From: Dehalococcoidia bacterium
GTDB lineage: Bacteria > Chloroflexota > Dehalococcoidia > Lucifugimonadales > JAAXIE01
Assembly: GCA_965197805.1 (NCBI GenBank)
Contig: OZ240229.1
Location: 3,589,039-3,653,038 of the forward strand
Direction of reading: 5' to 3'
Length of the DNA stretch: 64,000 bases
Shown: positions 4,953 through 63,540 of the stretch, piece after piece
Layout of the letters: each line of letters starts with the position of its first letter
How positions within the stretch are numbered: the stretch's first letter is position 1
Program-made: the position numbers and the translations under genes
The notes under the pieces: model-generated
The model's input: only the letters and a program-made list of their open reading frames with translations
Database searches by the model: none
What the model was told of the DNA's origin: nothing

Positions 4953-5381
4953 TCACTCCCGCGAGGGCAACTCCACTGTAGCCCTGCCGGGGGTTGTGAT
5001 CTGCCCTTCGCTGTCTTCCAACCATATCTCGCATTCGACTAGGTGGCGGGCCTCTTCCACGTACTTGCGGGTCACCTTGCCCTTGCAATACAGGGGCTTC
5101 CCTGGCTGGTCCATGCCTCGATACTGGCAGGACAGCTTGCGCAGGGTGCCACCCTCCCCGATCCAGTCGGTCATCAATTGCCCAAGGAAGGCATTCTTCA
5201 GGGCACCGTGCAGGATGGGGCCGGGAAGGTCGTTCCCGACGGCGAAGTCCTTGTCGTAGTGGATTTCATAGAAATCGCCCGATGCCCCAGCGTACCGCAC
5301 CAACTGTCGTGTGGTGGGATTCTTCACCAAGGTGGGCACTTCCATTCCTTCTTCTACGTCTTGCCACTGCAACTGGGCCAT
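4953..5381 (-). CDS. MaoC-like (R)-specific enoyl-CoA hydratase, hotdog fold
   Basis: RQLVRYAGASGDFYEIHYDKDFA...GPILHGAL is the MaoC dehydratase signature. Confidence 0.85.
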   Translation of the reverse strand: MAQLQWQDVEEGMEVPTLVKNPTTRQLVRYAGASGDFYEIHYDKDFAVGNDLPGPILHGALKNAFLGQLMTDWIGEGGTLRKLSCQYRGMDQPGKPLYCKGKVTRKYVEEARHLVECEIWLEDSEGQITTPGRATVELPSRE

Positions 5382-5387
5382 TGCCTG

Positions 5388-5432
5388 TCCCCCTCAACCT
5401 AACCCTCTCCCGCCTGGGAGAGGGGACTGCCT
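5388..5432. repeat. GC-rich palindromic intergenic element (REP-like), copy 1
   Basis: CCCTCAACCTAACCCTCTCCCGCCTGGGAGAGGGGAC. Its reverse complement contains GGGAGAGGGTTAGGTTGAGGG, also seen at 58453-58476. Confidence 0.7.
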
Positions 5433-5533
5433 TTTGGTTCTGTTGTGTGACCTCACCGGCTACGGGCAACTTCCGCCTATCGAAGTCCACAGCCTATGGA
5501 TAGTCGCCTCCGCTTCTCTTGTATGAAGCAGGG

Positions 5534-5992
5534 CTAGTATCTGATGAGCGTCGACTTCTGCGTTGCCACCACTTGGTCCAGTTGGTTGGTGTAGGTGGTA
5601 ACGGTGGAGACGAATATCATTGGCCCCAGCCGGCCTGCCCGCTCGGAGACATCGGTCACGCGGTTGATGGCCGTGATGCGGTCTCCGACCCGTACCGGCT
5701 CGGAATACTCCCAATCGCTGCCGCCGTCCAACACCCGTTGGAACTCCTCCTCGAAGGGGAGCGCCAATCGTTCTGTGCGCAGATTGCGCAGGAAGGTGGG
5801 GGTCGCGACGATGCCACCGTAGCGGCTGCGACGGGCGGCCACGTCGTCGGTCCACAGCGGATTGGCGTCCTCGATAGCCTCGGAGAACCGGGCGATGGCC
5901 CCCTTCTCGACCTCCAGCGTAACGGGCGGCGACTCCGTACCAATGGACTGGTTGCGGATCTCTTCGGTGATAACAGTTCCCTGGGAGGTCAA
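5534..5992 (-). CDS. MaoC N-terminal-type hotdog-fold protein (probable partner subunit of 4953..5381)
   Basis: Hotdog-fold-like sequence adjacent to the MaoC gene in the same operon. Its size and position match heteromeric hydratases. Confidence 0.75.
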   Translation of the reverse strand: MTSQGTVITEEIRNQSIGTESPPVTLEVEKGAIARFSEAIEDANPLWTDDVAARRSRYGGIVATPTFLRNLRTERLALPFEEEFQRVLDGGSDWEYSEPVRVGDRITAINRVTDVSERAGRLGPMIFVSTVTTYTNQLDQVVATQKSTLIRY

Positions 5993-6160
5993 GGCAACAC
6001 CTTCAGCAAGACATACGTTCAGCGGATGCGCGCCCGCAGTTTAAGGATGGCTACGAATGGGTGTCAAGGCGGCTCGTAGCTAAGGGCAGGACCTCTCGTT
6101 TGTTGGCGGGGTGGGACATAACGTGCTACCTTTTGAGATTGCGCAGCTATGGAGGGTGTG

Positions 6161-6296
6161 CCATGGTGTCCCATTCTTGTAGCTGGATGAGATACTGGTT
6201 GTATTTGCAAAAATGTTATTTACATCTGATTGTTGTCTCATTTGTCTCACCGCCAGCTTGGGTCGTATCTGAGACAGTGGAACCGTGGTGTCCCAT
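6161..6296. repeat. Word-array locus D: two copies of TGGTGTCCCAT plus scaffold words shared with loci A and B
   Basis: TGGTGTCCCAT at 6164-6174 and 6286-6296. The reverse complement of 6169-6186 is CCAGCTACAAGAATGGGA, identical to 14593-14610. The reverse complement of 6260-6273 is CTCAGATACGACCC, 13 of 14 identical to 59143-59156. Confidence 0.7.
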
Positions 6297-13954: not shown

Positions 13955-13984
13955 TTGACAGTCCGCGTACAAACGTTCTACTAT
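13955..13984 (+). promoter_or_regulatory. Candidate sigma70-type promoter (TTGACA-18-TACTAT)
   Basis: TTGACA at 13955-13960 and TACTAT at 13979-13984. Confidence 0.4.
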
Positions 13985-13997
13985 CTACTCATGTGCT

Positions 13998-14041
13998 GCG
14001 CCAGGGGACTGACCCCTGAAGGGTCCCTTGGCGTTTTCTTT
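13998..14041 (+). terminator. Conserved hairpin plus T-tract (intrinsic terminator or leader attenuator), copy 1
   Basis: GCGCCAGGGGAC...GTCCCTTGGCG stem followed by TTTTCTTTT. The core AGGGGACTGACCCCTGAAGGGTC (14003-14025) recurs at 58709-58731 with one substitution. Confidence 0.55.
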
Positions 14042-14116
14042 TCAGTCGCCTCTACCCCCTCAGTTAAGAAGGAAAGCTCCGGGAGACCCCACCGACACGT
14101 TCCAGGAGGAACTCCC

Positions 14117-14554
14117 GTGAGCAAGTCAACGCGACACGACACCCAGACGCCCGTCAACGAGATCGCTGACAACGGTACCTATGCCACCTTCCATGCCACT
14201 ACCCGGGCAGCCAAAAAGGAGAAATTCATCCAAGCTCATCACTGGGGTGCCACTGTCGCCGAAGCCGCCCGCTGGGCTGGCATCCCCATGTCCACCCTCT
14301 ACCGCTGGCGCGACAAAGACCCCAAATTCGCGCAGGCCTGGACCGAATCCCGCCGCAAACTCGTTGAGAGTCTCGAGAGGGAAGCCTTCCACCGTGCTGC
14401 CAACGGCAGTGACCGTATGCTCGCTTTACTCCTCAAGTCCTACAAGCCCCGCACCTACAACCAGCGACCATCCGCGCCCCACGACCCGCACCACAGGAGA
14501 AACGACCCTGCTGATGTCGCCAATCTCGTCGAGAGAATTCGTGCCTGGGCCTAA
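14117..14554 (+). CDS. Phage-type HTH protein, terminase-small-subunit-like
   Basis: ATVAEAARWAGIPMSTLYRWRDKDPKFAQAWTESRRKLVESLEREAFHRAANG is the pattern common in phage small terminase/HTH proteins. GTG 14117 has AGGAGGA 7 nt upstream. The longer ORF from 13856 overlaps the Ldh_2 gene. Confidence 0.55.
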   Translation: MSKSTRHDTQTPVNEIADNGTYATFHATTRAAKKEKFIQAHHWGATVAEAARWAGIPMSTLYRWRDKDPKFAQAWTESRRKLVESLEREAFHRAANGSDRMLALLLKSYKPRTYNQRPSAPHDPHHRRNDPADVANLVERIRAWA

Positions 14555-14560
14555 ACTCCC

Positions 14561-14773
14561 ATGCAAAAATGGGAATCCGGTTCAGATACGGCCCAGCTAC
14601 AAGAATGGGAAAATGGGAATCAAAACAGCTACGAAAAACAGCGCGCCAGATACGACTCGATTCCCATTTTGTATCTGGCAATGGGCAATCTACGGGAAGA
14701 GAATGGGAGATATCAGCCACGAAAATGGGAATGAAATGAGAATATCATTCCCATTTCTCGGGAATGGAATGGG
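14561..14773. repeat. Word-array locus A: about ten AATGGGAAT-type words in both orientations
   Basis: AATGGGAAT at 14568, 14612 and 14724. AATGGGAA at 14604. Variants at 14680, 14702, 14735 and 14762. Inverted ATTCCCATT at 14660 and 14747. CAGATAC at 14583 and 14647. CAGCTAC at 14594 and 14626. Inverted repeat GCCAGATAC/GTATCTGGC at 14645-14679. Confidence 0.85.
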
Positions 14774-14783
14774 CCCTCCAACT

Positions 14784-15218
14784 CTACAACGCCTTCCGCA
14801 TCTGGACATGCTCAATACCCGCCTCCATGAACACCTCCCCCTCCTCCACATACCCTTGGCGGCCGTAGAAGGCCTTCACGTAGGTCTGGGCATGGAGCGT
14901 GGCTTGGGTGAGGCCCAAGCGGCGGGCTTCCTGCTCCAGCCGCTCCATGATGATTGTGCCCACCCCAGCACGTCTGTGGGGTAAGTCCACTGCCATGCGC
15001 CCTATCCGCGCCTCACCATCGGGCAGCGCTACCAGCCGTCCCGTGCCTACAGGCAGCGGGCCCAATATGGCAAGGACATGAACGGCAGTGGAGTCGGCCC
15101 CATCCATCTCCTCCTCCACTGGTACGCTCTGCTCGTGGACGAACACGCGGATGCGGATGGCCTTGGCCGCCTCCATCTCGGAGTCGGTTTCCACCAGCTT
15201 GACGGTGACGCTGTCCAA
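14784..15218 (-). CDS. GNAT-family N-acetyltransferase
   Basis: RIGRMAVDLPHRRAGVGTIIMERLEQEARRLG acetyl-CoA binding motif. Start placed at TTG 15218, 12 nt after the upstream gene stop. The longer ORF to 15365 overlaps that gene. Confidence 0.75.
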   Translation of the reverse strand: MDSVTVKLVETDSEMEAAKAIRIRVFVHEQSVPVEEEMDGADSTAVHVLAILGPLPVGTGRLVALPDGEARIGRMAVDLPHRRAGVGTIIMERLEQEARRLGLTQATLHAQTYVKAFYGRQGYVEEGEVFMEAGIEHVQMRKAL

Positions 15219-20864: not shown

Positions 20865-21620
20865 ATGCCACTGGAAGGGAAGACGGCTCTAATCACCGGC
20901 TCTGGCCGCAACATAGGACGGGCGACAGCCCTCACCTTGGCCAAAGAGGGCGTCAACGTGGTGGTCAACGCCCGCACCAATCAGGCCGAGGTCGACGCCG
21001 TAGCCGAGGAAGTCCGCAGCTTGGGCGTGCGAGCCCTGCCGGTGTTGGCGGATGTCGCAGATAAGGCTTCAGTGGACTCCATGGTCTCCCAAGCTTTGGA
21101 GGAATTCGGGGGCATCGACATCCTCGTAAACAACGTGGCCATTCGCCCCCACCGCCCCTTCCTCGAAGTGACCTTGGACGAGTGGGTCAGAATCCGCAGC
21201 ATCATATTGGACGGGGCCATCTATTGCAGCCAAGCCGCCATACCATCCATGGTCGAGAAGGGTTGGGGCAGGGTCATCTACATGACTGGCTCCGGGACCT
21301 ATCGCGGTGGCGGCAACCGGGCGCATGTGTCAGCCGCCAAGATGGGGCTGGCTGGCTTGGCCCGTTCCCTGGCTTTAGAGATGGCACCCCACAATATAAC
21401 GGTAAACGTCATATCGCCTGGGACCATCGACACAGTCCACGAGGCTTCGTGGTACCCCGAGGGTGTGCCCGAGTCCCGCGCCCACTCCGAGGTGCCTCTC
21501 GGGCGGGCAGGTTGGCCGGAAGAGATTGCAGGTGCCTGTCGCTATCTAGCCTCGGATGATGGAGCCTACGTCACCGGTCAGACTCTCCACGTAAACGGCG
21601 GCCTGTTCCTAGGCTGGTAG
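20865..21620 (+). CDS. SDR-family oxidoreductase (FabG-like)
   Basis: TALITGSGRNIGRA, NNVA, and HVSAAK catalytic region. GGGAGG RBS. Confidence 0.9.
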   Translation: MPLEGKTALITGSGRNIGRATALTLAKEGVNVVVNARTNQAEVDAVAEEVRSLGVRALPVLADVADKASVDSMVSQALEEFGGIDILVNNVAIRPHRPFLEVTLDEWVRIRSIILDGAIYCSQAAIPSMVEKGWGRVIYMTGSGTYRGGGNRAHVSAAKMGLAGLARSLALEMAPHNITVNVISPGTIDTVHEASWYPEGVPESRAHSEVPLGRAGWPEEIAGACRYLASDDGAYVTGQTLHVNGGLFLGW

Positions 21621-21657
21621 TCAGTAGGCTGGTAGTCAGCAGGCTGGTAGTTAGTAG
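21611..21657. repeat. 15-bp tandem repeat x3 containing the SDR stop codon (AGGCTGGTAGTCAGY)
   Basis: AGGCTGGTAG at 21611, 21626 and 21641. Each copy carries an in-frame TAG (21618, 21633, 21648). Confidence 0.9.
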
Positions 21658-26902: not shown

Positions 26903-27019
26903 TGGCGCTAAGGTGTGAGGGAGGGTGAGCCTCTACTACACGCTATTGGGCGGTCCGCGATCCGATTGACACCCTTCCGGCATCGCCATAGAATGGCCCC
27001 GCTTTAACAACTTAATAAG

Positions 27020-27185
27020 CAGTCCCGGGTACCCACAGGGTTTAAGAGGGAAGGCGGTGTGAGACCGCCGCGGTAGCGCCACTGTAATTGGGGAGCGGGC
27101 CGGCAACAATCCACTGTTCCATTAGGGATGGGAAGGGGCCGGGCCCGTAGTGATCCATGAGCCAGGAGACCTGCCCGGGAAAGCG
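27020..27185 (+). promoter_or_regulatory. Cobalamin (B12) riboswitch
   Basis: AAGAGGGAAGGCGGTGTGAGACCGCC...GCCACTGT...B12 box GAGCCAGGAGACCTGCC. The P1 helix pairs CCCGGGT (27024) with CCCGGG (27174). Lies upstream of a BtuF-like operon. Confidence 0.85.
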
Positions 27186-27255
27186 GAGCCCTACTCTGCG
27201 CGTGACGGAGTCGGCTCTCGGAACGCCTGCGGCGGCTTCAGCCAATGCCTTTCCG

Positions 27256-30384: not shown

Positions 30385-31515
30385 TCACCGGGTGAACTGA
30401 GTCATCACCCCGAGGTTGGCCTCAAGTGTGTCGCCGTTGACCAAGACCAGCCCTTCTTGCACCAGCGTACGGATATCGCGCTGCAGTGTTTTACTGGAAA
30501 CGCCCTTGTACAAGAACGACAGCTGTCCTTGCCCCGCCCTGAGGGTCTTCAGTGATAGCGGACGGTCTGCCACACCTACCAGTAAGCCAAGTTGTCTCTC
30601 GCCGGCGCGACTCCCCAATCTGCCAGCCGACGCGAGAGTCTCCCGTGCGAAGTCGCGAAAGGATATCACCGTGACCTCGTCCAGCACCTCTCGGTGGACG
30701 GCTTCCAACTCCTCCTCCAGCCCCCGCAACGCGAACATTACGAAAGGACTCAAGTCCGGGTCGCTCACGAACCTCACATGATCTAGCATTGACACGTACT
30801 CGGGTCGATTGCGGTAATAGTAGTTGGCTAGGGAGTAGTACCCCCGCGCATTTACCCCAGCCTGGTATAGTAAATAGCTCTCCACAGCCCTAGACGTGCG
30901 ACCGTTTCCATCTCCGAAAGGATGAATGCTGATAACGTAGAAGTGGGCTACTATGGCTCTTATCACGGGATTCCAATGGGCGGCGGAGCCAGAGTTAAAC
31001 CACTTGAAGAACTCCGCCATCAGTGCCCTCACCGCGTCGCCTTCCCTCGGAGGTAGATATGTGCCTGCCTGAACGGGAAACGTGCGATATCGGCCGGGAG
31101 TGTTGTTAGGGTAGCCAATATCTTTCGTGATGGTCCTGTGGAAGTGTCGCACCAGTTCCTCCGTTAGAGGGGCAGATGGCTCAGCCCTCAGCCTCTCGGC
31201 GACGTAGCGCATGACTTGGTCGGCATTGCGTACCTCTTGCTCATCCCGAGCTCGGCCTTCCGGAAGAACACGCCTCTCCGTAGGAGTGTCCAGGATGTCC
31301 TGCACCTCCTCTTCGGATACCTCGGTGCCCTCGATACCTGTGGTCCCTCGCACCGCTCGCATGATGTTTAGGCTATCGAGCCGGTTTTGGACAAAGGGTG
31401 GGATGGGTATACCCCGAATCACCGACGCCATCGCGTCCACCTTGAACAGCAGCCTCAGACACTCCGGGTCTGCCATGTCCACTCGCATATCAAAGTGGAC
31501 ATCCCAGCGTGGCAT
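30385..31515 (-). CDS. Class II Fic-family protein (AMPylase-type) with C-terminal winged-helix domain
   Basis: Fic motif HPFGDGNGRTSR. N-terminal inhibitory-helix motif TTGIEG ([ST]xxxE[GN]). Start taken at ATG 31515 (GAGGAG upstream). The first 13 codons of the ORF track coincide with operator palindromes. Confidence 0.85.
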   Translation of the reverse strand: MPRWDVHFDMRVDMADPECLRLLFKVDAMASVIRGIPIPPFVQNRLDSLNIMRAVRGTTGIEGTEVSEEEVQDILDTPTERRVLPEGRARDEQEVRNADQVMRYVAERLRAEPSAPLTEELVRHFHRTITKDIGYPNNTPGRYRTFPVQAGTYLPPREGDAVRALMAEFFKWFNSGSAAHWNPVIRAIVAHFYVISIHPFGDGNGRTSRAVESYLLYQAGVNARGYYSLANYYYRNRPEYVSMLDHVRFVSDPDLSPFVMFALRGLEEELEAVHREVLDEVTVISFRDFARETLASAGRLGSRAGERQLGLLVGVADRPLSLKTLRAGQGQLSFLYKGVSSKTLQRDIRTLVQEGLVLVNGDTLEANLGVMTQFTR

Positions 31516-31528
31516 GGGAACTCTCCTC

Positions 31529-31626
31529 TGGACATTGTCCAGGACAATGTCCACCAGTACTTCATAGTTATATCATATCTGATAATTATGGACATACTTG
31601 TGGACAATGTCCACACGAATGTCCAC
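31529..31626. promoter_or_regulatory. Operator array upstream of fic: TGGACAWTGTCCA palindromes
   Basis: TGGACATTGTCCA at 31529-31541. GGACAATGTCC at 31542-31552. GTGGACAATGTCCAC at 31600-31614. AATGTCCAC at 31618-31626. TGGACAT at 31589. CAGTAC at 31554 and GTACTG at 31633 flank the array. Confidence 0.6.
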
Positions 31627-31821
31627 TAATGTGTACTGCTGAACGGCCCGGATCACAGCGATTTGCAGGCCCCAACTTCCTCCAGCGGGCCCTGACCCCC
31701 CAACACCCCGGTAACAAATACCGTACAGACGTTCTATAATAACGCTGGAGCGTGCTGGAACTGACCCCAAAGTTGGCGTGTCTCCTTCTGTTCAGTAGCT
31801 AACCCTCTTGACACTCTCACC

Positions 31822-31850
31822 TTGACATATACGTACATATATTCTATAAT
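31822..31850 (+). promoter_or_regulatory. Consensus sigma70 promoter TTGACA-17-TATAAT
   Basis: TTGACA at 31822-31827, a 17-nt spacer, and TATAAT at 31845-31850. A second TTGACA lies at 31808. Confidence 0.6.
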
Positions 31851-31950: not shown

Positions 31951-32115
31951 ATGCCCAAAACCGCCCCTTCTCTGGTCAAGAGTGTGAAAGTCGTTGTCTC
32001 CGTCTCACCCGCTGAATACCAGCGGTGGAAACGCCTCGCCATCCAAAACGAGATGCGTGTCCCTGAGTTCGTGCGCTACCTCGTAGGCCAAGCCGCCCGC
32101 AAACTGGAGCAATAG
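31951..32115 (+). CDS. Small ribbon-helix-helix (CopG/Arc-type) protein, 54 aa; below the ORF-track size cutoff
   Basis: Hand translation gives MPKTAPSLVKSVKVVVSVSPAEYQRWKRLAIQNEMRVPEFVRYLVGQAARKLEQ. This fits beta-strand plus two helices with an RHH-like pattern. AGAGG lies upstream. Confidence 0.55.
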   Translation: MPKTAPSLVKSVKVVVSVSPAEYQRWKRLAIQNEMRVPEFVRYLVGQAARKLEQ

Positions 32116-32116
32116 G

Positions 32117-35327: not shown

Positions 35328-35403
35328 GTCCCAGTAGCTCAGGGGATAGAGCAGCTGCCTTCTAAGCAGCGGGTCGCGGGTTCGAATCCTGCCTGGGACG
35401 CCA
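35328..35403 (+). tRNA. tRNA-Arg (anticodon TCT), CCA encoded
   Basis: Hand-folded cloverleaf. Acceptor GTCCCAG/CTGGGAC, D arm GCTC..GAGC, anticodon stem GCTGC/GCAGC with loop CTTCTAA, T arm GCGGG-TTCGAAT-CCTGC, discriminator G, then CCA. Total 76 nt. Confidence 0.95.
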
Positions 35404-35420
35404 CCTCAGCTACGAAATAT

Positions 35421-35455
35421 CTTGGGACCACCCATCGCTCAAGGGTGGTCCCAAG
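35421..35455 (+). terminator. Perfect 13-bp hairpin downstream of tRNA-Arg
   Basis: CTTGGGACCACCC-ATCGCTCAA-GGGTGGTCCCAAG. There is no clear T-tract. Confidence 0.45.
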
Positions 35456-35629
35456 GGCAAAGAGTCGCCGGGTCGGGCGGCTTTTCTTATGCCACGAGGC
35501 ATATCCGACACGCTGCCTGCCCTCGCTCGTGAGTCCGGTTGCGACCCCCTCCTGCTTGCCTGACAGACAATTCTCGGAATCGAGGCAAGTACGTGACATG
35601 GCTACTAGATCGAGAGTGCGGAGCCGGAA

Positions 35630-35975
35630 AGTGGACGCAGGAAATCTGGAACTCGCCGGGTTGACGAAGCAGTTCGAGATCCACAACAAATCGGATGGCA
35701 AGTCCCACCGGACGGTGGAGTGGTACAACGAGGTCCTGGACATATTCATGGGCTAGCTAGGGGCGGAAGGGATGTCCACCTGCCTCGATGACCTGGGCGA
35801 GGATGAGGTCAGGCACTTCATCCTCCATCTCCAGGGACGGGCAGGCCTGCGGGGGCAGGCGTCAAGCCACACGGTAAACAACTAGGTCAGGGCGTTACGG
35901 CTTTCTTAAACTGGTTGCACGTACAGGGTTACACCGAGTGCCACAGACTGGAAAAACTGAAGGTCCCCGAGGTGC
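35630..35975 (+). pseudogene. Tyrosine recombinase/integrase remnant (N-terminal SAM-like domain only)
   Basis: KSHRTVEWYNEVLDIFMG*LGAEGMSTCLDDLGEDEVRHFILHLQGRAGLRGQASSHTVNN*VRALR, then a frameshift to AFLNWLHVQGYTE.HRLEKLKVPEV. In-frame TAGs at 35754 and 35883. The catalytic domain is absent. Lies next to a tRNA. Confidence 0.65.
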
Positions 35976-35976
35976 G

Positions 35977-36796
35977 TCAGTCGTCCACCGTGTCCTGCAC
36001 CTCGGTGAGTGTGACGCTCTTCTCGCTATCGCCGCTGTTGAAGAAGGCGCAGAAGCAGTCGGGGGTGAACTCGTAGTCCTCGGTGGTGACCCCGTCCTGG
36101 TGGTTCCTGTAGAGGTTTATGATGACGGTCCGCTCGGGGTCGGAGCTGAGCGTCACCTTGACCGTCACCGTGCTCCCCTCGGCCACCGAGTAGGCGGACT
36201 TCTCGAACGACACGGAGACCTGTGGGTCCTCGTCGTCGGTCACCGTCACGTCCACGTCGTCGATGTCGGCGTTGTTGTAGTCGGTGTCGGTGGAGGTCGC
36301 CGTGTGGGTCACCGTGGCCGTGTCGTCCGCGGCGTCGGTATCCTGGGCAGCGGAGACGGTCACCGTCTGCTCGTCGTCCCAGTTGGACGTGGTGAAAGTC
36401 AGGGTTGCCGGCGATGAGGTCACCTCGGTATTGTCCGTGGGGTCCTCGACCGTCACCACCACGTTGGCCGAGGGCTTGCTGTCCAGTACCACCGTGTAGG
36501 TCTCTTCCATCCCCCTCGTCCACCGTGATCCCCGCAGTGTCGTCATCGGTGATGGAGACGGTGGTCTCGTCGGTCATGCCCTCGGTGATCCTGTCGGTGA
36601 GGCTGGACTGCGGCTCCAGCCTCACCTTCTCCGTGTCCTCGTCCACATCGTCGTCGGCTGCGGTGAAGGTGATGGTCTTCTCCGTGTCGGCTGCCCCGAA
36701 GTCCACGCTGGCAGGCACCGAATAGTCGGTGTTGGAAGCTCCGTCGTTGGTCTTGGTGATGGGGAGGCCGGGATTCGATATGCCGAGATCCTGCAC
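35977..36796 (-). pseudogene. Calx-beta repeat protein fragment (5'-truncated and frameshifted)
   Basis: Two overlapping ORFs read as consecutive Calx-beta-type modules (…TITFTAADDDVDEDTEKV…ITDDDTAGITVDEG / EETYTVVLDSKP…VSFEKSAYSVAEGSTVTVKVTLS…). The frame switches near the C-run at 36511-36515. A stop lies just upstream of the first codon, and there is no signal peptide. Confidence 0.65.
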
Positions 36797-42846: not shown

Positions 42847-43446
42847 ATGCTATGGCTAAGGGGTGTTAGCGACGACCAAGCCGAAGGCTATGTCAAAGAA
42901 GTGTTCGACCGGTACCGGGAAACGCGGGGTGCAGTGCCTGCATTGTCTCGTGTGCTCGCACTTAGACCCGATGTGCTACGAGGACGGGAAACTCTACGTA
43001 ATGCGGTATGCGATGAAGCGACCACTCTGGGAAGGCGCCGCGAGGAGCTTCTGAATTTCTATGGAGCGACGCTAGGCGTCTGTACCGGTTGAGTGATGAA
43101 TCACGGAGAGTTGCTCCGTAAGGCTTCGGATACAGACAAGAAAGCAGTTGCAGCAATTGGTGCCGACTTCAGGACGTCCGAATTAGATCACCAGGACAAG
43201 ACCATGCTGGCTTTCGCTGAGAAACTTACCTTTGACCACACTCATGTGACCAAGCAAGACTTAGAAGGTCTGCGAGAGGTTGGCTTCAGCGACGAGAATA
43301 TCCTGGAAATCATAGCCTCTGTAGCCTTCAGGAATTTCAGTAACCGGCTGAATGTCGGCTTGGGCTTAGATGACCCTGACAACCTGCCGGAGTTAGACCC
43401 AGATCTGAACGAGATGTTGGTGACGAGGGAAGCTGTAAGCGCCTAA
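42847..43446 (+). CDS. AhpD/carboxymuconolactone decarboxylase (CMD)-family peroxidase-related protein with in-frame TGA at 43090-43092 (candidate selenocysteine, motif C-T-G-U)
   Basis: ORFs 42802..43092 and 43093..43446 are in the same frame, separated only by TGA. Together they give about 199 aa, the normal length for this family. The TGA sits at the second position of the CxxC redox motif (GVCTG[TGA]VMNH). AAGGAGG lies 7 nt before ATG 42847. Confidence 0.7.
43103..43119 (+). promoter_or_regulatory. SECIS-like hairpin downstream of the TGA
   Basis: ACGGAG-AGTTG-CTCCGT starts after a 10-nt gap from the TGA (first stem base 11 nt downstream of its last base). Confidence 0.45.
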
Positions 43447-56942: not shown

Positions 56943-57659
56943 TTACCCGCCGGCCGCCACCTGCTTCGCCCCCTCCGCCTGCTGCACAACACCCCAGATG
57001 TCTTGAGGCAACTCCGCGCCGCGCTCTTCACCCAACACCCCCGCCCGGTCCCGCGCTTCGGCAGCGTCGATTGCTGCAAAGTCCGACACCAGCAAGCCGA
57101 GGCCGTCCACCATGCGGACGCGGTAGTTGAAATAGGCCGATATGTGAGCGATATCCAAAATGTCCCGGTCCGTCCAGCCCACATCCCGCAGCTTCTGGAC
57201 ATCATCCTGAGTCATGGCCGATGGCGTGAGGGTCAGCTTTTCGGCCCATTCCAGCATGGCCCGTTCCCCCTCGGTGAGGTCGGCCTTCCTCCAGTCGTTC
57301 TGAATATACTCGGCGGTGAGATCGTCGCCGCCAACCCTACGCAGGGCCCCTGCGTGGGACACCGCTCAATAGCGGCAGTTGGCAGTCAGTGAGGTGACCG
57401 TAGCGATCATCTCCCGCTGTGCAGGGGTCAAGCCAGATGGCCCGCGCATGATGTCCATCATGAACTCGCGGGCGTGGAGCATCGCCTGTGGCTGTAGGCT
57501 GGAAAGCTCGGGAGGTGTCACGGGACGCTCCATCCCCGGCGCTGCCTCCCCGTAGGTCTCGCCCATGCGCTCATTGAGTTCCGCCATCTTGTCGTAGGCG
57601 GCCTTCAACTCGCCCTCGGCCCCGCTCTCCCTGATTACATGAATCCACGGCATAGCCAC
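56943..57659 (-). CDS. AhpD/CMD-family protein, second paralog with in-frame TGA (57368-57366) at the redox motif (C-R-Y-U); candidate selenoprotein
   Basis: ORFs 57659..57366 and 57362..56943 are in the same frame. The junction reads TSLTANCRY[TGA]AVSHAGAL, so the TGA takes the second Cys position of CxxC...H. The C-terminal half (MLEWAEKLTL...DVGWTDRDILDIAHISAYFNY) is the normal continuation of CMD proteins. Confidence 0.7.
57335..57358 (-). promoter_or_regulatory. SECIS-like hairpin downstream of the TGA
   Basis: The minus-strand RNA CCCACGCAGG-GGC-CCUGCGU(A)GGG forms a 10-bp stem with a bulged A and a G-rich loop. It starts 8 nt after the TGA. Confidence 0.45.
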
Positions 57660-57682: not shown

Positions 57683-58231
57683 CTAAGCCTTCAGCCTGCG
57701 GGCCGTATCCAGCACCGTAGCCATTGCTTGGTCAAGAAGCTCTCCCAACGAGGCGTCGATGATCGCGCCGTCGGGACTGATGGCTTGGTCCACATGGGGC
57801 AGCAGGACTCGTGGCGTCGTTACAACCCATCCGCCCTCCGACTCGATGCTGGAGACAAGGTGCTCTGCCATTCGTATCGATCCCGATCGCCCTGGTGTGC
57901 ACCCCATCACGTAGAACACCTGCCCCGGCATCACGTTGGGCGCACGACAGGCCCACTCCACCACGTTCTTCATCACCGCAGGAATGGTGCTGTTGTACTC
58001 CGGTGCCGTCAGCACCACGGCATCTGCTCCGGCTATGGCATCGCGCAACTCCCTGACCGAGGCCGGAAACTCGCCTCCCACTTCCAAGGCCGGGCTGTAC
58101 AGGGGCACCGGAGTAAGGTCGAACTCCTCCGCCTCCACGCCCTGCTTTCTCACGGCATCCATGGCCAGCTTCAGCAGCTTAAGGTTCCACGAGCCCTGAC
58201 GCAGGCTCCCGGCAATTCCTACTACTCCCAA
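57683..58231 (-). CDS. NADPH-dependent FMN reductase family protein
   Basis: GIAGSLRQGSWNLKLL...VVLTAPEYNSTIPAVMKNVVEW is the FMN_red pattern. It lies upstream of, and co-oriented with, the CMD paralog. Confidence 0.85.
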   Translation of the reverse strand: MGVVGIAGSLRQGSWNLKLLKLAMDAVRKQGVEAEEFDLTPVPLYSPALEVGGEFPASVRELRDAIAGADAVVLTAPEYNSTIPAVMKNVVEWACRAPNVMPGQVFYVMGCTPGRSGSIRMAEHLVSSIESEGGWVVTTPRVLLPHVDQAISPDGAIIDASLGELLDQAMATVLDTARRLKA

Positions 58232-58405
58232 TTGATGTCCTCCTAGGTGGGCCGTTGCATTGGACCCACTAAGTTCTCATGTATCGTCGAATGTATGTCA
58301 TCAGCAAGCATACCATGGAGATGCGGCCTCGTATGCCATGCGCCTATCCAGTGCCTGACCGCACCCCTCGAAGTGCGCCGCCCCCGCGCAGGCAGACCTT
58401 CGCGT

Positions 58406-58477
58406 ACCCCTCCCCTTAAGGGGTCTGTCCCAGAATATCCCCTGTCCCCCGGCGGGAGAGGGTTAGGGTGAGGGGGG
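58406..58477. repeat. GC-rich palindromic intergenic element (REP-like), copy 3
   Basis: CCCCTCCCCTTAAGGGG hairpin, then CCCCGGCGGGAGAGGGTTAGGGTGAGGGGGG. Confidence 0.65.
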
Positions 58478-58668
58478 AAAATGTCAAATACCAACGCTCT
58501 TTGCTTTTGATGACGATATCAGTAGAGTCTCCATAACAATCTCACCTCAATCGTCTCCCATCGAGGTAAGGGAGAGACCAACGCCCGAATTGTGAGGCGG
58601 CCTCTTCAGGGGGCCCCAAGGTGAAGGTCAGGATGTGGTTGGCAGGGCACCCCCATGACATCAGCCAA

Positions 58669-58750
58669 TTGACACCCACACCCCCTCCCGGTAACCTCAA
58701 AACAAGGCAGGGGACTGACCCCTCAAGGGTCACCCCTGCCTTTATTCTTG
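58669..58750 (+). promoter_or_regulatory. Candidate promoter (TTGACA-17-TAACCT) followed by the conserved hairpin plus T-tract, copy 2
   Basis: TTGACA at 58669-58674 and TAACCT at 58692-58697. The hairpin GGCAGGGGACTGACCCCTCAAGGGTCACCCCTGCC spans 58707-58740 and is followed by TTTATTCTT. No annotated gene lies upstream on this strand. Confidence 0.4.
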
Positions 58751-58788
58751 CCCGCGAATCAGCGGTGGCAGGATGAGCGGAAATGAAG

Positions 58789-59172
58789 AATCGGCGGAAA
58801 TCAGAACAAGTTTTCAAAGCTGCGCCAGATACAACTGTCGGAACAATCGGAACAACTCCAGATACAAAAACTTCTTTCCAGCTACAACCATGTTCCGATT
58901 GCCAGCTACGAATCGTGCCCTTTGGCTGACGCCCTTCCACACGGCACCCATTATGACAAAGCTCTCTCAGATACGGCCAAGGCCTAAATGTGACGTGCTG
59001 CACTTGCAAAAAATCTCGCCAATCGGAACAAGCTTGCAAGCAGGCTCACATACTACCGTCGGAACAATCGGAACCTCTCCGATACCCGCTACCGCTGCAG
59101 GTGCAAAAACCCTCCTCTTTCGGAACAGGCCTGCAAAGCTGACTCAGATACGACCGTCGGAACATTCGGAAC
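58789..59172. repeat. Word-array locus B: AATCGGAAC/GTCGGAACAWTCGGAAC words
   Basis: The 17-mer GTCGGAACAATCGGAAC occurs at 58837 and 59058, and GTCGGAACATTCGGAAC at 59156. Each is preceded by CA(G/C)ATACNACYG. AATCGGAAC at 59021, TCGGAAC at 59120, inverted GTTCCGATT at 58892. CAGATAC at 58826, 58859, 58968 and 59145. CAGCTAC at 58879 and 58903. Confidence 0.85.
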
Positions 59173-59277
59173 ACTCCCCGCGATGATGAGGCGGACTGCT
59201 GGCATAAAGGCACTATGTGGAGTATCGTATGGGCTCTACGGCAAGGCTCGCCCTATAACACATCAGGAGGCGCGATA

Positions 59278-60534
59278 TTGGCTACCGACGTACGAGAAAT
59301 GGTCGACGTTAAGCAGGGTCTCTTGGACCGGCGCATCTTCAACGATCGGGAGATATACGACCAGGAACAGGAAGCCATCTTCTCCAAGTGCTGGCTCTTC
59401 CTGTGCCACGAGTCCTCCATCGCCAATCCCGGCGACTTCTTCTCTACCTACATGGGCGAAGACCCCGTGCTGGTCACCCGTGGCCAAGACGGCAACATCC
59501 ACGCCTTCCTCAATGTCTGTCGTCACCGCGGGAACCGCGTCTGCCGCGCCGATGCCGGCAATGCGTCCGCCTTTGTGTGCGCCTACCACGGCTGGACCTA
59601 CGGCACCGACGGCAAGCTCATCGCGGTGCCCAGCCTCAAAGAGGCCTATTACGACGAGCTTGACACCTCCAAGTGGGGCCTCGCTCCCGTGGCCCAACTG
59701 GAGAACTACAAGGGGCTGGTCTTCGCCACCTTCGACCCCAACGCCCCCCCTCTGCTTGACTACCTCGGCGACATGGCTTGGTACCTCGATGCCTTCTTTG
59801 ACCGCCGAGAGGGAGGGATCGAGGTGATCGGCGGCATGCACCGCTGGGTTGCCCCCTGCAACTGGAAGCTGCCTGCCGAGAATTTCGCCAGCGACGCCTA
59901 CCATCTGGGCTGGACCCACCTCTCTGCCATACGCACCTCCTTCAGCCGCAGTTCAAGCGCCACCTCCAGCGGCATCGGCCACGCCATCTCCCCCGGTCAC
60001 GGCCATGGCATCGGCGCCGTCGGGCCTCAGGACGTTGTCGACGTAGCGCTACCCGAAGTACTCGAGTACGAGCACTCCATCCTCCCGGAGATACGCGAGC
60101 GCTTGGGAGCGAGGGTCGATATGATCAAGCCCGTAGTGGGCAATGTCTTCCCCAACTTTGCCCTGCTGCGTGGCTCGGCCCGCACCTTCCGCGTGTGGCA
60201 CCCCCGCGGCCCCGACAAGACCGAAATCTGGGCGTGGGTCTACGTGGACAAGGATGCTCCCGATGAAGTCAAGAAAGCCTACCGCCTAGCGGCTACCCGC
60301 ACCTTCAGTCCCAGTGGCACCTTCGAGCAGGATGACATGGACAACTGGCAGGGCGTGACCGACGCTGCCCGTACTACCGTATCCCGCAGGATTCCGATGA
60401 ACATGGGAATGGGCATCGGCCACGAGGGCTACCGCGAGGACTTGGGGGCCCTCACCAGCGATTACCGCTTCTCCGAGAGCAATCACCGCTCCTTCTACGG
60501 CCACTGGGCTGAGTTGATGGCGGCTGCGGAGTGA
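59278..60534 (+). CDS. Aromatic ring-hydroxylating oxygenase alpha subunit (Rieske)
   Basis: Rieske motif CRHRGNRV...CAYHGWTY. Iron motif NFASDAYHLGWTH. TTG 59278 lies 7 nt after AGGAGG. The ORF track begins at 59215. Confidence 0.9.
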   Translation: MATDVREMVDVKQGLLDRRIFNDREIYDQEQEAIFSKCWLFLCHESSIANPGDFFSTYMGEDPVLVTRGQDGNIHAFLNVCRHRGNRVCRADAGNASAFVCAYHGWTYGTDGKLIAVPSLKEAYYDELDTSKWGLAPVAQLENYKGLVFATFDPNAPPLLDYLGDMAWYLDAFFDRREGGIEVIGGMHRWVAPCNWKLPAENFASDAYHLGWTHLSAIRTSFSRSSSATSSGIGHAISPGHGHGIGAVGPQDVVDVALPEVLEYEHSILPEIRERLGARVDMIKPVVGNVFPNFALLRGSARTFRVWHPRGPDKTEIWAWVYVDKDAPDEVKKAYRLAATRTFSPSGTFEQDDMDNWQGVTDAARTTVSRRIPMNMGMGIGHEGYREDLGALTSDYRFSESNHRSFYGHWAELMAAAE

Positions 60535-60590: not shown

Positions 60591-61949
60591 ATGTCGGCTC
60601 TAAACGTTCTAAACGCGCCATCACAATGGCTTAGCCGGGCCATCCCCTTCCACTACGTGTGGGTGATAGTAGCCGCCCTTGCGACGGCCCAGATGATCGG
60701 TTTGGCAGTGGGCTGGGCCGCTGGCGTCTTGGTGACGCCTCTACAGGATGAATTCGGCTTCAAAATAGAGGAAATAGGCCTCTCCTTTGGCCTCTTCTAC
60801 CTAGCTGCCGCCTTCTTCGCTCCCATCGCCGGTTGGATGGGCGACCGGTTCGGCGCCCGCAGGGTGATGCTCCTCAGCGCGGTCCTCTACGTCATCACCT
60901 TGGTGTTGGTGGCGTTCATGGACCACCTGTGGAGCCTCTACTTTTCCTTCGGAATACTGCGTGGCATTGCACAAGTCATCTTCATGGTCCCTCTGATGGC
61001 CGGGGTGGCGTTGTGGTTCAACCGACGTCTCGGCCTCGGCACGGGGGTGCTATGGGCCGCCTCCGGCATCGGGTCGGCCGTGTTCGCCCCGTTACTGCCC
61101 TTCATGGTAGGCAACCTAGGCTGGCAGAACTCCTTCCTGTTGATATGCGCCGTACTGGGCGCCTCCCTGCTGCTGCTGGCGATACCCCTACGCAACACCC
61201 CCGAAGAGATGGGCTTGAAGCCCTACGGATGGGTAGTTGGCGACGAGGCCCGGCAGAAGGCAAGGAAGTCCATTGAGAAGATGCGCCTCAAGGTGTTCAA
61301 CCAGCATGTGCGCCGCACCAAGGCCTTCTGGAATCTGCCCTGCATCCACGGCCTGGGATGCGCCGGGCATGGCATCATCATGCTTTTCGTCGTGCCCCTA
61401 GCCGTCGACGACCGCGGCATCAGCCTCGGCACGGCTGCCTTCACCCTCACCATCATCTCCTCGGTGAGCATCATAAGCCGGTTCGTGACCCCGATCCTTT
61501 GCGAGCGCAAGGGCACCAAGCTGGTGATGGCAACCTGTCTGCTGCTACAGGGCCTTCCTGTGGTGATGCTGTTCTGGGCCGATAGCGCTTGGGAGTTCTT
61601 CCTCTTCTCCGCCATATTCGGCCTCGGCTTTGGGGGCGAATGGACGGGCTACCTAGTCATAAACCGCCAGTACTATGGCAACGGGCCCATGGGCACCCTG
61701 TACGGCTTCCAGAACGCAGGTTCGCTCATGGCTCACGCTTTCGTCAGTTGGGCCGCCGGGATGATGATCGCCCTCACCGGCTCCTATACCGCCATCCTCA
61801 TATTCAGCTTGCTCACCAGCCTAGGCGGGGCTGTCATGGTCATGGCCTTGGAGTCCACCTCCCACCGCCTCATCCCCTCCAACTGGGAAGACGACCTCCC
61901 CGCCGAAGCCCGCTCCAGCCCTCCCTCCGTCGCCATGGCCGACGACTGA
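60591..61949 (+). CDS. MFS transporter
   Basis: Twelve hydrophobic segments and an MFS loop motif GWMGDRFGARRV. Confidence 0.85.
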   Translation: MSALNVLNAPSQWLSRAIPFHYVWVIVAALATAQMIGLAVGWAAGVLVTPLQDEFGFKIEEIGLSFGLFYLAAAFFAPIAGWMGDRFGARRVMLLSAVLYVITLVLVAFMDHLWSLYFSFGILRGIAQVIFMVPLMAGVALWFNRRLGLGTGVLWAASGIGSAVFAPLLPFMVGNLGWQNSFLLICAVLGASLLLLAIPLRNTPEEMGLKPYGWVVGDEARQKARKSIEKMRLKVFNQHVRRTKAFWNLPCIHGLGCAGHGIIMLFVVPLAVDDRGISLGTAAFTLTIISSVSIISRFVTPILCERKGTKLVMATCLLLQGLPVVMLFWADSAWEFFLFSAIFGLGFGGEWTGYLVINRQYYGNGPMGTLYGFQNAGSLMAHAFVSWAAGMMIALTGSYTAILIFSLLTSLGGAVMVMALESTSHRLIPSNWEDDLPAEARSSPPSVAMADD

Positions 61950-61966
61950 CCATGGCCGACGACTGA
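61933..61966. repeat. Perfect 17-bp tandem duplication containing the MFS stop codon (CCATGGCCGACGACTGA x2)
   Basis: 61933-61949 is identical to 61950-61966. Confidence 0.95.
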
Positions 61967-62060: not shown

Positions 62061-63540
62061 ATGCGAACAGGGGCAGAGTACAAAGAGAGTTTGCGCGATG
62101 GGCGCGACGTATGGGTGATGGGCGAAGGCCCGGTGGCAGACGTCACCACAGACCCGGCGACCTCGGCCATGGTGAATGAGTACGCTGCATGGTATGACCG
62201 CCACTTCGACCCCGTCGGCCCCGTCGGCCCCGTCGGCCCCGTCCGCCCTGTCGGCCCTGTCGGATGCACCCGGCCAGCGGCAGCCTGTTGCCTTCACGCC
62301 GCCTGAGACGTCTGCGGATTTGAGGCGCTTGGGGAAGGCAATCAGTGCAGTCCATTCCCTGGCCGGGGGAAACATGACTCACACCCCAGGCTACGGGGCC
62401 TTGATTGCCTTGGGGTTCCTGAATGTTCTCAAGCGGCTGAACCACTCCTCCGAGGAGATTGAGGCGGCTGAGGCGTATCTGGAATCTCTGGCTGGCAGCG
62501 GCAGGTTTCTCACCTTCGCCGGAGCTGGGACACTGATTGGGACACGGCTCCGCGAAACTGAGAGTGAGCGGGCGGCGCTCCGTGTGGTTAGCGAGACCGC
62601 TGAGGGCATCGTGCTGAGTGGCAAGCTCCAGATGCACACCAGTACGCCCTTCGCCGAGGACGTGCTCATCACCTGCAGGGATGAGTTGCCACCGGGCAGC
62701 GGCAGGTTCCTGTGGTTCATCGTGCCGGTGAACTCCCCCGGCATGCGGGTGGTGGCCCGCCGGCTCGCCGCCAAGCACGACAATCCCTTTCTAGCGCCCT
62801 TGAGCAGCCGGTTTGATGAGCTGGACGCCATGCTCTGGCTGGAGGACGTTTTCGTCCCTCGCTCTCGGATTTTTGCCGCCGAACCTCTGCTGCGGAACCT
62901 GTCTGGGCGCCATTCGCTGGTATCCTGGCTTCTCTGGCATCACAGCTACGGCTGGCTCGCCAAGGCCGAATTGACCCTCGGCCTCGCCCTTGCCTTGGCT
63001 GAAGTCATGGGGTTAAAGGGCAATCCCCAGACAATCGAGCAGTTGGTCGAGCTGACCGTCAGCGTCCAGACCACTCGCACCTGCATGACAGCAGCGGAAC
63101 TGGACCCGGAGACGACGGTGGGCGGGCATGCCCTGCCTAACCAGCTCCACTTGGCCGCTGCAGGGATCAACACCCTCAGAGTGCGCCAGCGGATGACTGA
63201 AATCCTGCGTGGCCTTCCCGGTTCGTCCTTGGTCAACGCCCCTGCCGACACCGACTTCGCAGACCCGAGGATGGCTGCCGAACTGGAAGATGCCTTTGGC
63301 GGGGGCGGCTACACTGCCATGCAAAGAGCGGCCCTCTTACAGCTCACCTGGGACCAAGTTTCGTCGGGGTTGGACGGACGAGAATCAGCCTTCGAGCTCC
63401 ATGCCAGCGGCGGGCTGGAAGTATGGCGACGCCGCTTATGGGTCTGGTTCGAACGCTGCAACGAACTCGCCAACGGCGTCCAGCACCTCCTCGAGATAGC
63501 CAGACCGCCCATCGACCTGACCAACCTCCAGAAATTCTAG
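62061..63540 (+). pseudogene. HpaB-family (4-hydroxyphenylacetate 3-monooxygenase / 4-hydroxybutyryl-CoA dehydratase-like) gene, reading frame broken at a 9-bp microsatellite
   Basis: The N-terminus MRTGAEYKESLRDGRDVWVMGEGPVADVTTDPATSAMVNEYAAWYDRHFDP (frame of 62061) is the canonical HpaB start. The rest of the family-like sequence (..QPVAFTPPETSADLRRLGKAI.. to the end) is in the frame of 62176. The switch lies within or next to 62221-62274. Confidence 0.7.
62221..62274. repeat. 9-bp microsatellite, six units (CCCGTCGGC x3, CCCGTCCGC, CCTGTCGGC, CCTGTCGGA)
   Basis: Counted directly in the sequence. It encodes (PVG)n in one frame or (SAP)n in another. Confidence 0.95.

Follow-up and report, generated by a model that had tools for sequence, protein, structure and literature searches.

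What are the short words that recur, in direct and inverted orientation, in about one kilobase of DNA between two divergently transcribed metabolic genes? The locus in question (locus B) lies in a 64,000-nt stretch of contig OZ240229.1 from the Dehalococcoidia bacterium assembly GCA_965197805.1 (hereafter the window), where 1046 nt separate the start of a flavin mononucleotide (FMN) reductase gene (58231, minus strand) from that of the gene for a Rieske oxygenase alpha subunit (59278). An earlier inspection of the letters alone (the sequence-only reading) had described this region as a gap with no credible open reading frame (ORF) and with three copies of a 28-nt unit. It had taken the locus for the same kind of element as a second repeat region in the window (locus A) but with a changed specificity word, and had suggested extracytoplasmic function (ECF) sigma-factor promoters or a transcription factor as explanations. 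Here we find that the repeats upstream of the Rieske oxygenase gene are real and far above chance, and that, as judged from sequence, locus B is a member of a small lineage-specific family of two-word DNA arrays. Our favoured account, held tentatively and with a little less than even confidence, is that B is an orphan, phage-derived array resembling the pac or cosB sites bound by the small terminase subunit (TerS), now residing in the control region of the Rieske operon.

Both gene starts were found to be right, with Pfam, translations and gene calls supporting a TTG start at 58231 for the FMN reductase and a TTG start at 59278 for the Rieske gene, the latter with an AGGAGG ribosome-binding site ahead of it (59266-59280, plus strand, including the start codon). 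The Pfam assignments of the flanks comprise the FMN reductase, an AhpD-like gene, the Rieske gene, a major facilitator superfamily (MFS) gene and HpaB, and gene assignments hold in independent gene calls on a near-identical assembly (L001). The gap itself is left empty by gene callers in three assemblies, upholding the view that it holds no credible ORF. Two long ORFs that span it have no Pfam match, the words fall in a different reading frame in the window than in a sister species (L120), and the sister arrays carry stops in all frames. A coding reading was rejected for the wider set of arrays as well: the array of locus A can be read as a 57-aa ORF in the window, but a TGA breaks the frame in two further arrays (L133 and L134) that are described below.

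Every word listed in the sequence-only reading is present in the gap, namely GTCGGAACAATCGGAAC at 58837 and 59058, GTCGGAACATTCGGAAC at 59156, AATCGGAAC at 59021, TCGGAAC at 59120, an inverted GTTCCGATT at 58892, four occurrences of CAGATAC (58826, 58859, 58968, 59145) and two of CAGCTAC (58879, 58903). Allowing up to two mismatches, TCGGAACAWTCGGAAC has three matches in the 64-kb window, all at locus B, compared with 0.03 expected from shuffles. The hexamer CGGAAC alone is not enriched window-wide (47 occurrences versus 38 expected), yet 9 of the 47 fall within 58839-59172, and clusters of CAG[AC]TAC on the plus strand occur only at locus A (14583-14647) and locus B. Repeat finding and alignment agree with the sequence-only reading on the number of copies, three, but show the unit to be longer than 28 nt. 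A 54-nt repeat family has its three copies at 58801-58854, 59022-59075 and 59120-59173, of which the second and third extend upstream to form a tandem duplication of 97-98 nt (58997-59075, 59094-59173). If X denotes CCAG[AC]TAC and Y denotes TCGGAAC, the true repeat unit spans approximately 80-98 nt in the order Y-(X-like)-X-YY, with TGCAAG occupying the X-like place, while copy 1 runs on beyond YY as X, X, inverted Y and X. In total, the stretch 58801-59172 contains 19 X/Y words, for the most part 9-13 or 20-25 nt from their neighbours; locus B thereby shows the clustered short repeats, at roughly helical spacing over ~100-250 bp, that mark pac and cos sites.

Copy 1 of the array (58801-58909, plus strand) contains a full core, with the order and 77-bp span of the core of locus A (14594-14671). 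It opens with a degenerate Y (TCAGAAC, 58801), an X (CCAGATAC, 58825-58832) and a tandem YY (TCGGAACAATCGGAAC, 58838-58853), continues with a second CCAGATAC followed by an A-tract (58858-58870) and an X of the form CCAGCTAC (58878-58885), and closes with the inverted Y (58892-58900) and another CCAGCTAC (58902-58909). It is followed by a lone X word, CAGATAC inside CAAAGCTCTCTCAGATACGGCC (58968-58974, plus strand), which aligns with CTCTCAGCTACCGCC of L120. Copy 2 (58997-59092, plus strand) begins with GCTGCACTTGCAAAAAA and the Y-containing AATCGGAAC (59021-59029), then TTGCAAG, and carries a degenerate X (CACATAC, 59047-59053), YY (59059-59074) and two further degenerate X words, CCGATAC (59079) and CCGCTAC (59086); it is one base apart from L001 (T/G at 59054). 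Copy 3, the proximal one (59094-59173, plus strand), consists of GCTGCAGGTGCAAAAAC, Y (TCGGAAC, 59120-59126), TGCAAAG, X (CAGATAC, 59145-59151) and YY (TCGGAACATTCGGAAC, 59157-59172), and is the ortholog of the single unit present in the sister species.

The view of B as an element of the locus A kind was supported by the shared word order, by the 77-bp span and by a promoter-hairpin module common to both. Locus A, our reference member (13955-14790, plus strand), has the same X words as locus B and is positioned between convergent genes. It comprises a promoter (TTGACA-N17-TACTAT), a hairpin (13999-14045), an orphan terS-like gene encoding 145 aa (14117-14554) and an X/Y array (14560-14790) in which Y is AATGGGAAT. 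The word map of its core, X-10-Y-8-Y-14-X-21-X-14-Y(inv)-10-X, is closely followed by that of copy 1 of locus B, X-12-Y-9-Y-12-X-20-X-13-Y(inv)-11-X, with an A-tract behind the middle X in both. The specificity word has indeed changed, as X is constant while Y is TCGGAAC in B versus AATGGGAAT in A. Chance matches, which the sequence-only reading had named as a way in which the likeness might dissolve, do not account for it: the best local alignment of A and B covers ~18 nt around GCGCCAGATAC and scores z = 5 to 6, above all 500 shuffles. Because this primary sequence similarity is short, we regard the homology of A and B as mainly architectural.

Two further arrays of this grammar were found outside the window (L133 and L134), with a third Y word, AATGAGAA, in fuller form AATGAGAA[AT]. 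The L133 array lies directly 3' of a terS-like paralog in the same genome (P0240), and the L134 array directly 3' of P0243, a distant ortholog of the locus A gene. A search of 254 kb of clade DNA for X plus a tandem word recovered only the known arrays, a further orphan array at 6150-6280 and two likely chance intragenic matches. This orphan array (minus strand; CAGATAC ... GAGACAAATGAGACAA, and CCAGCTACaagAATGGGACACCATGGCACAC) stands upstream of a MaoC-like dehydratase gene and has an exact 18-mer, CCAGCTACAAGAATGGGA, in common with locus A. Two word types were noted in it, ATGAGACAA and ATGGGACAC, similar to those at the two loci with an orphan terS-like gene. The word sets of other family members contain GGGAAT or GAGAAA. 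As to locus D, which the sequence-only reading had proposed to align with A and B, it could not be identified with certainty (6150-6280 on the minus strand and 31470-31640 are candidates).

In the complete members, the arrays adjoin a gene whose product at locus A is, by profile and predicted structure, a TerS homolog. The 145-aa protein matches phrog_4044 (E = 5.5e-17), and its AlphaFold model has a predicted local distance difference test score (pLDDT) above 90 over the helix-turn-helix (HTH). Among PDB structures, this model is closest in fold to the Sf6 TerS and phBC6A51, and in BFVD its best matches are small terminases of phages (E ~2e-4). A profile search yielded ~55 relatives, among them prophage genes in terS-terL-portal order (P0254, P0251, two looked-up relatives). 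All Y copies within an array, inverted copies included, are of the same variant, and the variants pair with the start of the recognition helix: IPMSTLYRWR (P-M-S) with AATGGGAAT, GGG (window and L132), and V-A-TLYRWR with AATGAGAA, GAG (L133 and L134). Such a pattern would be the expected outcome of co-evolution between a DNA-binding protein and its site.

The region ahead of the arrays also has a prophage counterpart. Upstream of a prophage terS (L142:2618-2735), we found a module composed of CATGACATC, TTGACA-N17-TAATAT, a strong hairpin with the core GGGGACTGACCCC and a T-run, in that order. The same module precedes the orphan terS-like genes (upstream of locus A, and in L133 and L134) and recurs at 58654-58749 of locus B; an alignment of all five copies has the invariant pattern TG.CAT..CC..TTGAC, and the B copy also matches L133 in blastn. 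At locus B, the phage-type, sigma-70-like promoter of the module (58654-58697, plus strand) is directed toward the array and the Rieske gene, and consists of the upstream box CATGACATC (58654-58662), TTGACA (58669-58674), a 17-nt spacer and TAACCT (58692-58697). A consensus scan for canonical sigma-70 promoters called none at 58654-58697, and the promoter is therefore a homology-based call. Behind it lies a strong hairpin, AAGGCAGGGG-ACTGACCCCTCAAGGGTCA-CCCCTGCCTT and then TTTATTCTT (58704-58749, plus strand), which resembles an intrinsic terminator or attenuator and has no plus-strand gene upstream. Its RNA fold is strong (-29.5 kcal/mol, z = -4.6), and its 22-nt core, GGGGACTGACCCCTSAAGGGTC, is found at locus B and at 14004 only. 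In L133, L134 and the prophage L142, the promoter is followed by the same hairpin, with outer stems that differ yet still pair. Between the hairpin and the array of locus B, repeat finding detected two copies of a 15-nt repeat (AGGATGAGCGGAAAT / AGAATCGGCGGAAAT; 58770-58801, plus strand).

In lambdoid phages, PR'-tR' combines a late promoter with a terminator close behind it that is passed only upon antitermination, and by analogy the promoter-hairpin module may be an arrangement of this type. At its 5' coding end, the prophage terS has X-GAAAAAA-N-X, spaced by 21 nt as in the arrays, suggesting that X is part of the phage's own packaging region.

To what extent has locus B been retained among relatives? 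The window belongs to a genome from a soil metagenome, present as a contig of 3.68 Mb. A sister species (L120 and L121) has a Rieske protein 89% identical to that of the window and the same gene order, with a synonymous divergence (dS) of 0.42-0.82 in the flanking genes, and an intergenic gap of ~385 nt compared with 1046 nt here. It has a single B unit, orthologous to copy 3, with the word TCGAAACATTCGAAAC in L120 and TCGGAACATTCGAAAC in L121. Pairwise alignment with L120 places ~600-660 nt that are specific to this genome at 58350-58950, a segment in which array copy 1 and the promoter-hairpin module are accompanied by a repetitive extragenic palindromic (REP)-like GGGAGAGGGTTAGGGTGAGGGG element (58451-58476). 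Of the non-coding sequence of the locus, the block TGATGAGGCGGACTGCTGGCATAAA (59184-59208, plus strand) is the best conserved, being identical at 25/25 positions in L120 and, over its last 21 nt, also in L121. This block probably serves the Rieske-MFS operon as its core promoter (with TGn plus CATAAA, or TAAAnn, as candidate elements); array copy 3 ends 11 nt ahead of it, and 15 nt ahead of the 21-nt core at 59188.

Array A is 228/229 identical (99.6%) between two species in which the flanking-gene dS is 0.43, while the fast-evolving terS-like ORF of the same species pair has a dS of 0.18, a non-synonymous divergence (dN) of 0.11 and a dN/dS ratio (omega) of 0.61. Set against this gene divergence, the identity of the array indicates that the non-coding array is far more constrained than the adjacent terS-like gene. 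A strain polymorphism was seen in one degenerate word of array A, at 14683 (L127, L129 and L130 versus the window; AATGGGCAAT versus AATCGGCAAT), which is the G/C position that separates the A word from the B word.

The interpretation of B as a phage-derived, TerS-binding array draws together a set of sequence-level findings: the repeats, their grammar, the array family, the link to terS-like genes, the shared module, the lack of an ORF and the one unit of the sister species. From these we infer that the words act as DNA and are bound by a TerS-like protein, with consequences that may lie in downstream regulation, in packaging initiation or in a decoy role. In the mechanism that we propose, each array presents words of 7-9 nt in two classes, X constant and Y locus-specific, at a spacing of roughly one turn of the helix, and a complete member runs from a promoter and terminator hairpin through a stand-alone gene for a TerS homolog to the array. 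A ring or oligomer of HTH-bearing TerS-like subunits would bind the Y words, arranged as a tandem pair and an inverted copy ~45-49 bp away, and the X-A-tract-X segment between them would serve as a bend or as the site for a common partner. Since the promoter-hairpin and the array are present and the ORF is absent, B would correspond to the front and back of a complete module, and since it has no terS-like gene, its binding protein would come in trans. The position of B just upstream of the conserved Rieske promoter block leads us to expect that occupancy would affect the Rieske operon, and the lone unit of the sister species may be retained for such an effect.

Several observations weigh against this interpretation. 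No terS-like gene or pseudogene was detected near B in tblastn searches with 55 family members (window plus 10 kb to the right of B), and no paralog with a helix matching TCGGAAC was identified; two orphan paralogs were seen in this genome, versus at least four Y types (A, L133, B and D). The pairing of helix and word extends over three loci only. No Y-type array is found within 3 kb of the prophage terS, where only REP-like CGTCATTCCCGCGAAGGCGGGAAC units occur, so that the arrays may not resemble the phage's own pac site. B is far less conserved than A, its alignable part being ~75% identical, and the two differ in tandem period (9 nt in B versus 8 nt in A) and in the last core X, which is inverted in A and direct in B. 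In SF6, the isolated DNA-binding domain of TerS showed little preference for the box repeats (PMC4737164). Finally, the sister B unit lacks the promoter-hairpin module and thus persists alone by the Rieske promoter, a situation that fits an ordinary operator equally well.

Such an operator array is the rival that survives best, and together with a decaying relic we regard it as serious, although we assign it a distinctly minor chance. It would consist of TCGGAACAWTCGGAAC direct repeats with CAGATAC as a flanking half-site, recognized by a transcription factor that is encoded elsewhere and controls the divergent FMN-reductase/AhpD-like and Rieske/MFS operons, with the copies arising from local duplication. 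In line with this, the array occupies a divergent promoter region, its proximal unit lies by the candidate core promoter and the sister species keeps exactly that unit, so that the placement upstream of a gene and the retention at orthologous promoters expected of an operator are both seen (one unit, in L120 and L121). The G/A word changes (TCGGAAC to TCGAAAC) also keep a GAAAC-type half-site, resembling the sites of OmpR-family regulators. However, there is no adjacent regulator gene in either species, the word is present at no other promoter in the 64-kb window, and a 9-nt tandem period is unusual for response regulators. An operator would also leave unexplained why the same grammar, with X, occurs at locus A between convergent genes, where there is nothing to regulate, and again behind a second terS-like gene.

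A smaller chance still is left to a non-functional relic, either what is left of a phage packaging module after decay or a repeat that is expanding locally and happens to lie in a long gap between genes. Decay would fit the lack of both an ORF and terS, the absence from the sister species of ~600-660 nt that include the module and copy 1, the variation in copy number from 1 to 3 and the degenerate words of copy 2 (CACATAC, CCGATAC), as well as a conservation far below that of locus A and the presence of a REP-like element in the same gap. What decay would not readily produce are Y words that are near-perfect in 8 copies despite a flanking-gene dS of 0.42-0.82, or the survival of X plus YY at the orthologous site in L120 and L121; moreover, locus A is under extreme constraint, and decay would not keep the 77-bp grammar.

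We also considered, and find doubtful, an extension of the TerS-binding account in which the X/Y arrays and the orphan terS-like genes together form a host-resident packaging-initiation or decoy system that is triggered by phage late transcription. A related phage would read through the promoter-proximal terminator, leading to production of the orphan TerS, which would recruit the phage large terminase to the chromosomal arrays A, B and D; B would be used in trans, with the Y word deciding which TerS is involved. One outcome would be that catabolic genes next to the arrays are packaged by the headful mechanism and transferred (a programmed lateral transduction that involves no island), and another the sequestration of the packaging motor as a decoy defence.

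A role at the RNA level is unlikely, with only a slim chance of being correct. A transcript started at the phage-type promoter would here cross the array and form a long Rieske 5' leader or a small RNA, in which the words would act as motifs bound by protein or RNA (GGA-containing, CsrA-sponge-like) or would pair among themselves. The array does have a promoter-like site and a hairpin immediately ahead of it on its own strand, pairing of Y with inverted Y is possible, and array A folds well (z = -4.6). Yet the B array folds no better than shuffles (z = -1.1), Rfam 15 gave no gathering-score match across the window and none at E <= 1 in 58232-59290, and the hairpin with its U-run should halt most transcripts ahead of the array. 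A stem is not conserved, X being inverted in A and direct in B, and inverted DNA sites explain the Y/Y' complementarity equally well.

Very unlikely, finally, are alternative-sigma promoter elements (ECF GGAAC-N16-17-CGT, or sigma-54 GG-N10-GC from CGGAAC...TTGCA), even though GGAAC is the classic ECF -35 core, CGGAACGACCTTTGCA in L121 combines sigma-54 spacing with TTGCA and the Y1-to-X distance is fairly constant (17-19 nt): the GGAAC-N16-type promoters raised by the sequence-only reading are unsupported, with no consistent -10 after any GGAAC, no CGT-type -10 at 16-17 nt past any of them and downstream sequences that differ in the three copies; measured against sigma-54 (GG-N10-GC; TGGCAC-N5-TTGCA), CGGAAC...TGCA is spaced by N9 in L120 and in copies 2 and 3 of the window and by N10 in L121 only, the spacing being appropriate in 1 of 5 copies, with copy 1 lacking the GG; and tandem plus inverted copies would be senseless as promoters, with family words elsewhere being GGGAAT or GAGAAA.

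How widely is the element distributed? A scan of 185,579 species genomes for the 17-mer GTCGGAACAWTCGGAAC returned at least 118 loci, all of them single matches in unrelated taxa (~140 expected), and among the listed matches in species genomes none was accompanied by X words. In JGI metagenomes, the 25-nt pattern MTAC-N5-TCGRAACAWTCGRAAC had 29 matches, approximately the chance expectation, and the sole double match was a 114-nt tandem repeat on an unrelated contig with no called genes, and has the look of a coding repeat. IMG/VR yielded no TerS relatives, and the X-A-tract-X pattern gave chance matches there in low-GC phages only; among GenBank phages, one weak TerS-like match was obtained and none to the DNA of B. 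Rieske homologs at a greater distance (68-76% identity; L122-L126) have other gene contexts, and the motif is absent from them. Judged by these searches, the element is confined to this clade.

Three kinds of mobile or phage-borne element were considered and rejected. A dispersed repeat of the miniature inverted-repeat transposable element (MITE) or REP type is contradicted by loci that are alike in grammar and not in sequence, by the locus-specific Y and by chance-level matches among those listed. B is not part of a phage or satellite genome, as its flanks are metabolic and syntenic with the sister species and only the promoter-hairpin module is common to a prophage. Phage satellites, namely phage-inducible chromosomal islands (PICI), PICI-like elements (PLE) and P4-like elements, were dismissed because no integrase or excision, replication or helper-exploitation genes surround A, B or L133, which have metabolic neighbours and conserved synteny.

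If the TerS-binding account is correct, a phage DNA-recognition device, consisting of a small terminase and a repeat site, has been kept in a bacterial chromosome outside a prophage. It would be under stronger constraint at locus A than the surrounding genes, and would have diversified by changes of both word and recognition helix, while orphan sites such as B landed in the control regions of catabolic operons. The arrays would then provide a natural system in which to study how small terminases read DNA, which is still unclear even in model phages, and whether phage packaging signals are put to use in gene transfer, defence or regulation by bacteria or by minimal hitch-hikers. Should B prove to be an ordinary operator, it is of local interest only.

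A number of other features were noted in the window and in the clade. Two AhpD/CMD-like ORFs (56943-57659, minus strand, and 42847-43446, plus strand) have one in-frame TGA each, at the second cysteine of the CxxC...H motif (contexts N-C-R-Y-TGA-A-V-S-H and G-V-C-T-G-TGA-V-M-N-H), and in the 56943-57659 ORF a hairpin begins 11 nt past the TGA. These are probably selenocysteine proteins, split by gene callers into 95 + 139 aa, and the split recurs in the sister species. At 31470-31850, an array of palindromic words (GGACATTGTCC, GTGGACAATGTCCAC, AATGTCCAC) adjoins a Fic-domain gene; behind it are two promoters of the locus A phage type (GTACAGACGTTCTATAAT, GTACATATATTCTATAAT), and a small ORF at ~31952-32116 reads, by eye, like a ribbon-helix-helix protein. 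The region looks like the control region of an integrated element. A tRNA gene (35328-35400) followed by stop-broken integrase-like coding fragments (35328-36000) is likely the remnant of an element integrated at the tRNA. A cobalamin riboswitch (27010-27192, plus strand, 117.5 bits) is located upstream of a putative iron-complex/B12-type ATP-binding cassette (ABC) transporter substrate-binding gene.

Repeats of other kinds were also seen. Toward its 5' end, the HpaB-like ORF contains 6.4 tandem copies of the 9-nt repeat TCGGCCCCG (62206-62263), and the gene is called in two pieces in L001, and an exact 17-nt duplication marks the end of the MFS gene (61933-61966). The 15-nt tandem repeat TAGGCTGGTAGTCAG (3.2 copies, 21610-21657) is found between convergent genes, a dispersed repeat of the clade, GGGAGAGGGTTAGG[GT]TGAGGGG, occurs at 58451-58476 and 5389-5414, and the prophage region carries tandem units of ~100 nt built on CGTCATTCCCGCGAAGGCGGGAACCCACGGCCC (L142:1100-1500, 5300-5860).

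How do the arrays compare with known systems? In the SPP1 pac site, direct repeats in three sets cover the promoter and the start of terS, and TerS rings show HTH motifs about one DNA turn apart, leading to the proposal that DNA wraps around the ring (PMC4737164). Like SPP1/SF6 pac, with its boxA, boxB and boxC, the arrays described here are short direct repeats over 100-250 bp that adjoin terS and its promoter; the TerS is HTH-bearing, and the array words lie ~8-14 bp apart beside the terS-like genes. The terS gene in cis that characterizes pac is found at A, L133 and L134 and is missing at B, which differs further in being chromosomal, between metabolic genes, and syntenic across species. 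Two alternating word classes, one of them constant, are not described for SPP1, and in complete members the arrays lie 3' of the gene, whereas pac lies over the 5' end of terS.

Packaging can be initiated at pac-like sites of plasmids, or at other places in the chromosome, by a TerS that a different element encodes (PMC8494744), the PLE satellite carries a mimic of the pac site of its helper phage, and terS together with its native promoter suffices as a packaging signal (10.64898/2026.06.26.734846). Locus A has exactly the layout of this minimal terS packaging cassette, and B would be a site used in trans. Unlike the Staphylococcus aureus pathogenicity islands (SaPI), PICI and PLE, the modules lack genes for an integrase, for replication and for capsid remodelling, do not form part of an island and stand at the same chromosomal place in different species.

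Lambda cosB has three gpNu1 sites, R3, R2 and R1, with the integration host factor (IHF) site I1 between the inverted R3 and R2, and in lambdoid phages the cosB words change together with the Nu1 recognition helix. The arrays similarly have three specificity words, one inverted, ~45-50 bp apart around a bend element (here X-A-tract-X), and a specificity word that varies with the small-terminase recognition helix. They differ in that no cosN-like nicking site or IHF consensus was identified in them, in that X is a repeated word and not a single IHF site, and in their greater length, up to ~16 words. The combination of a constant and a variable word has its counterpart in parS of P1 and P7, where a constant box A and a specificity-determining box B flank an IHF bend; each array likewise has two word classes around a bend, one shared and one setting specificity, the difference being that ParA and ParB are absent here and the associated protein is TerS-like. 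Seen alongside these systems, the arrays would be small-terminase recognition arrays of a known kind, here chromosomal, diversified and partly orphaned.

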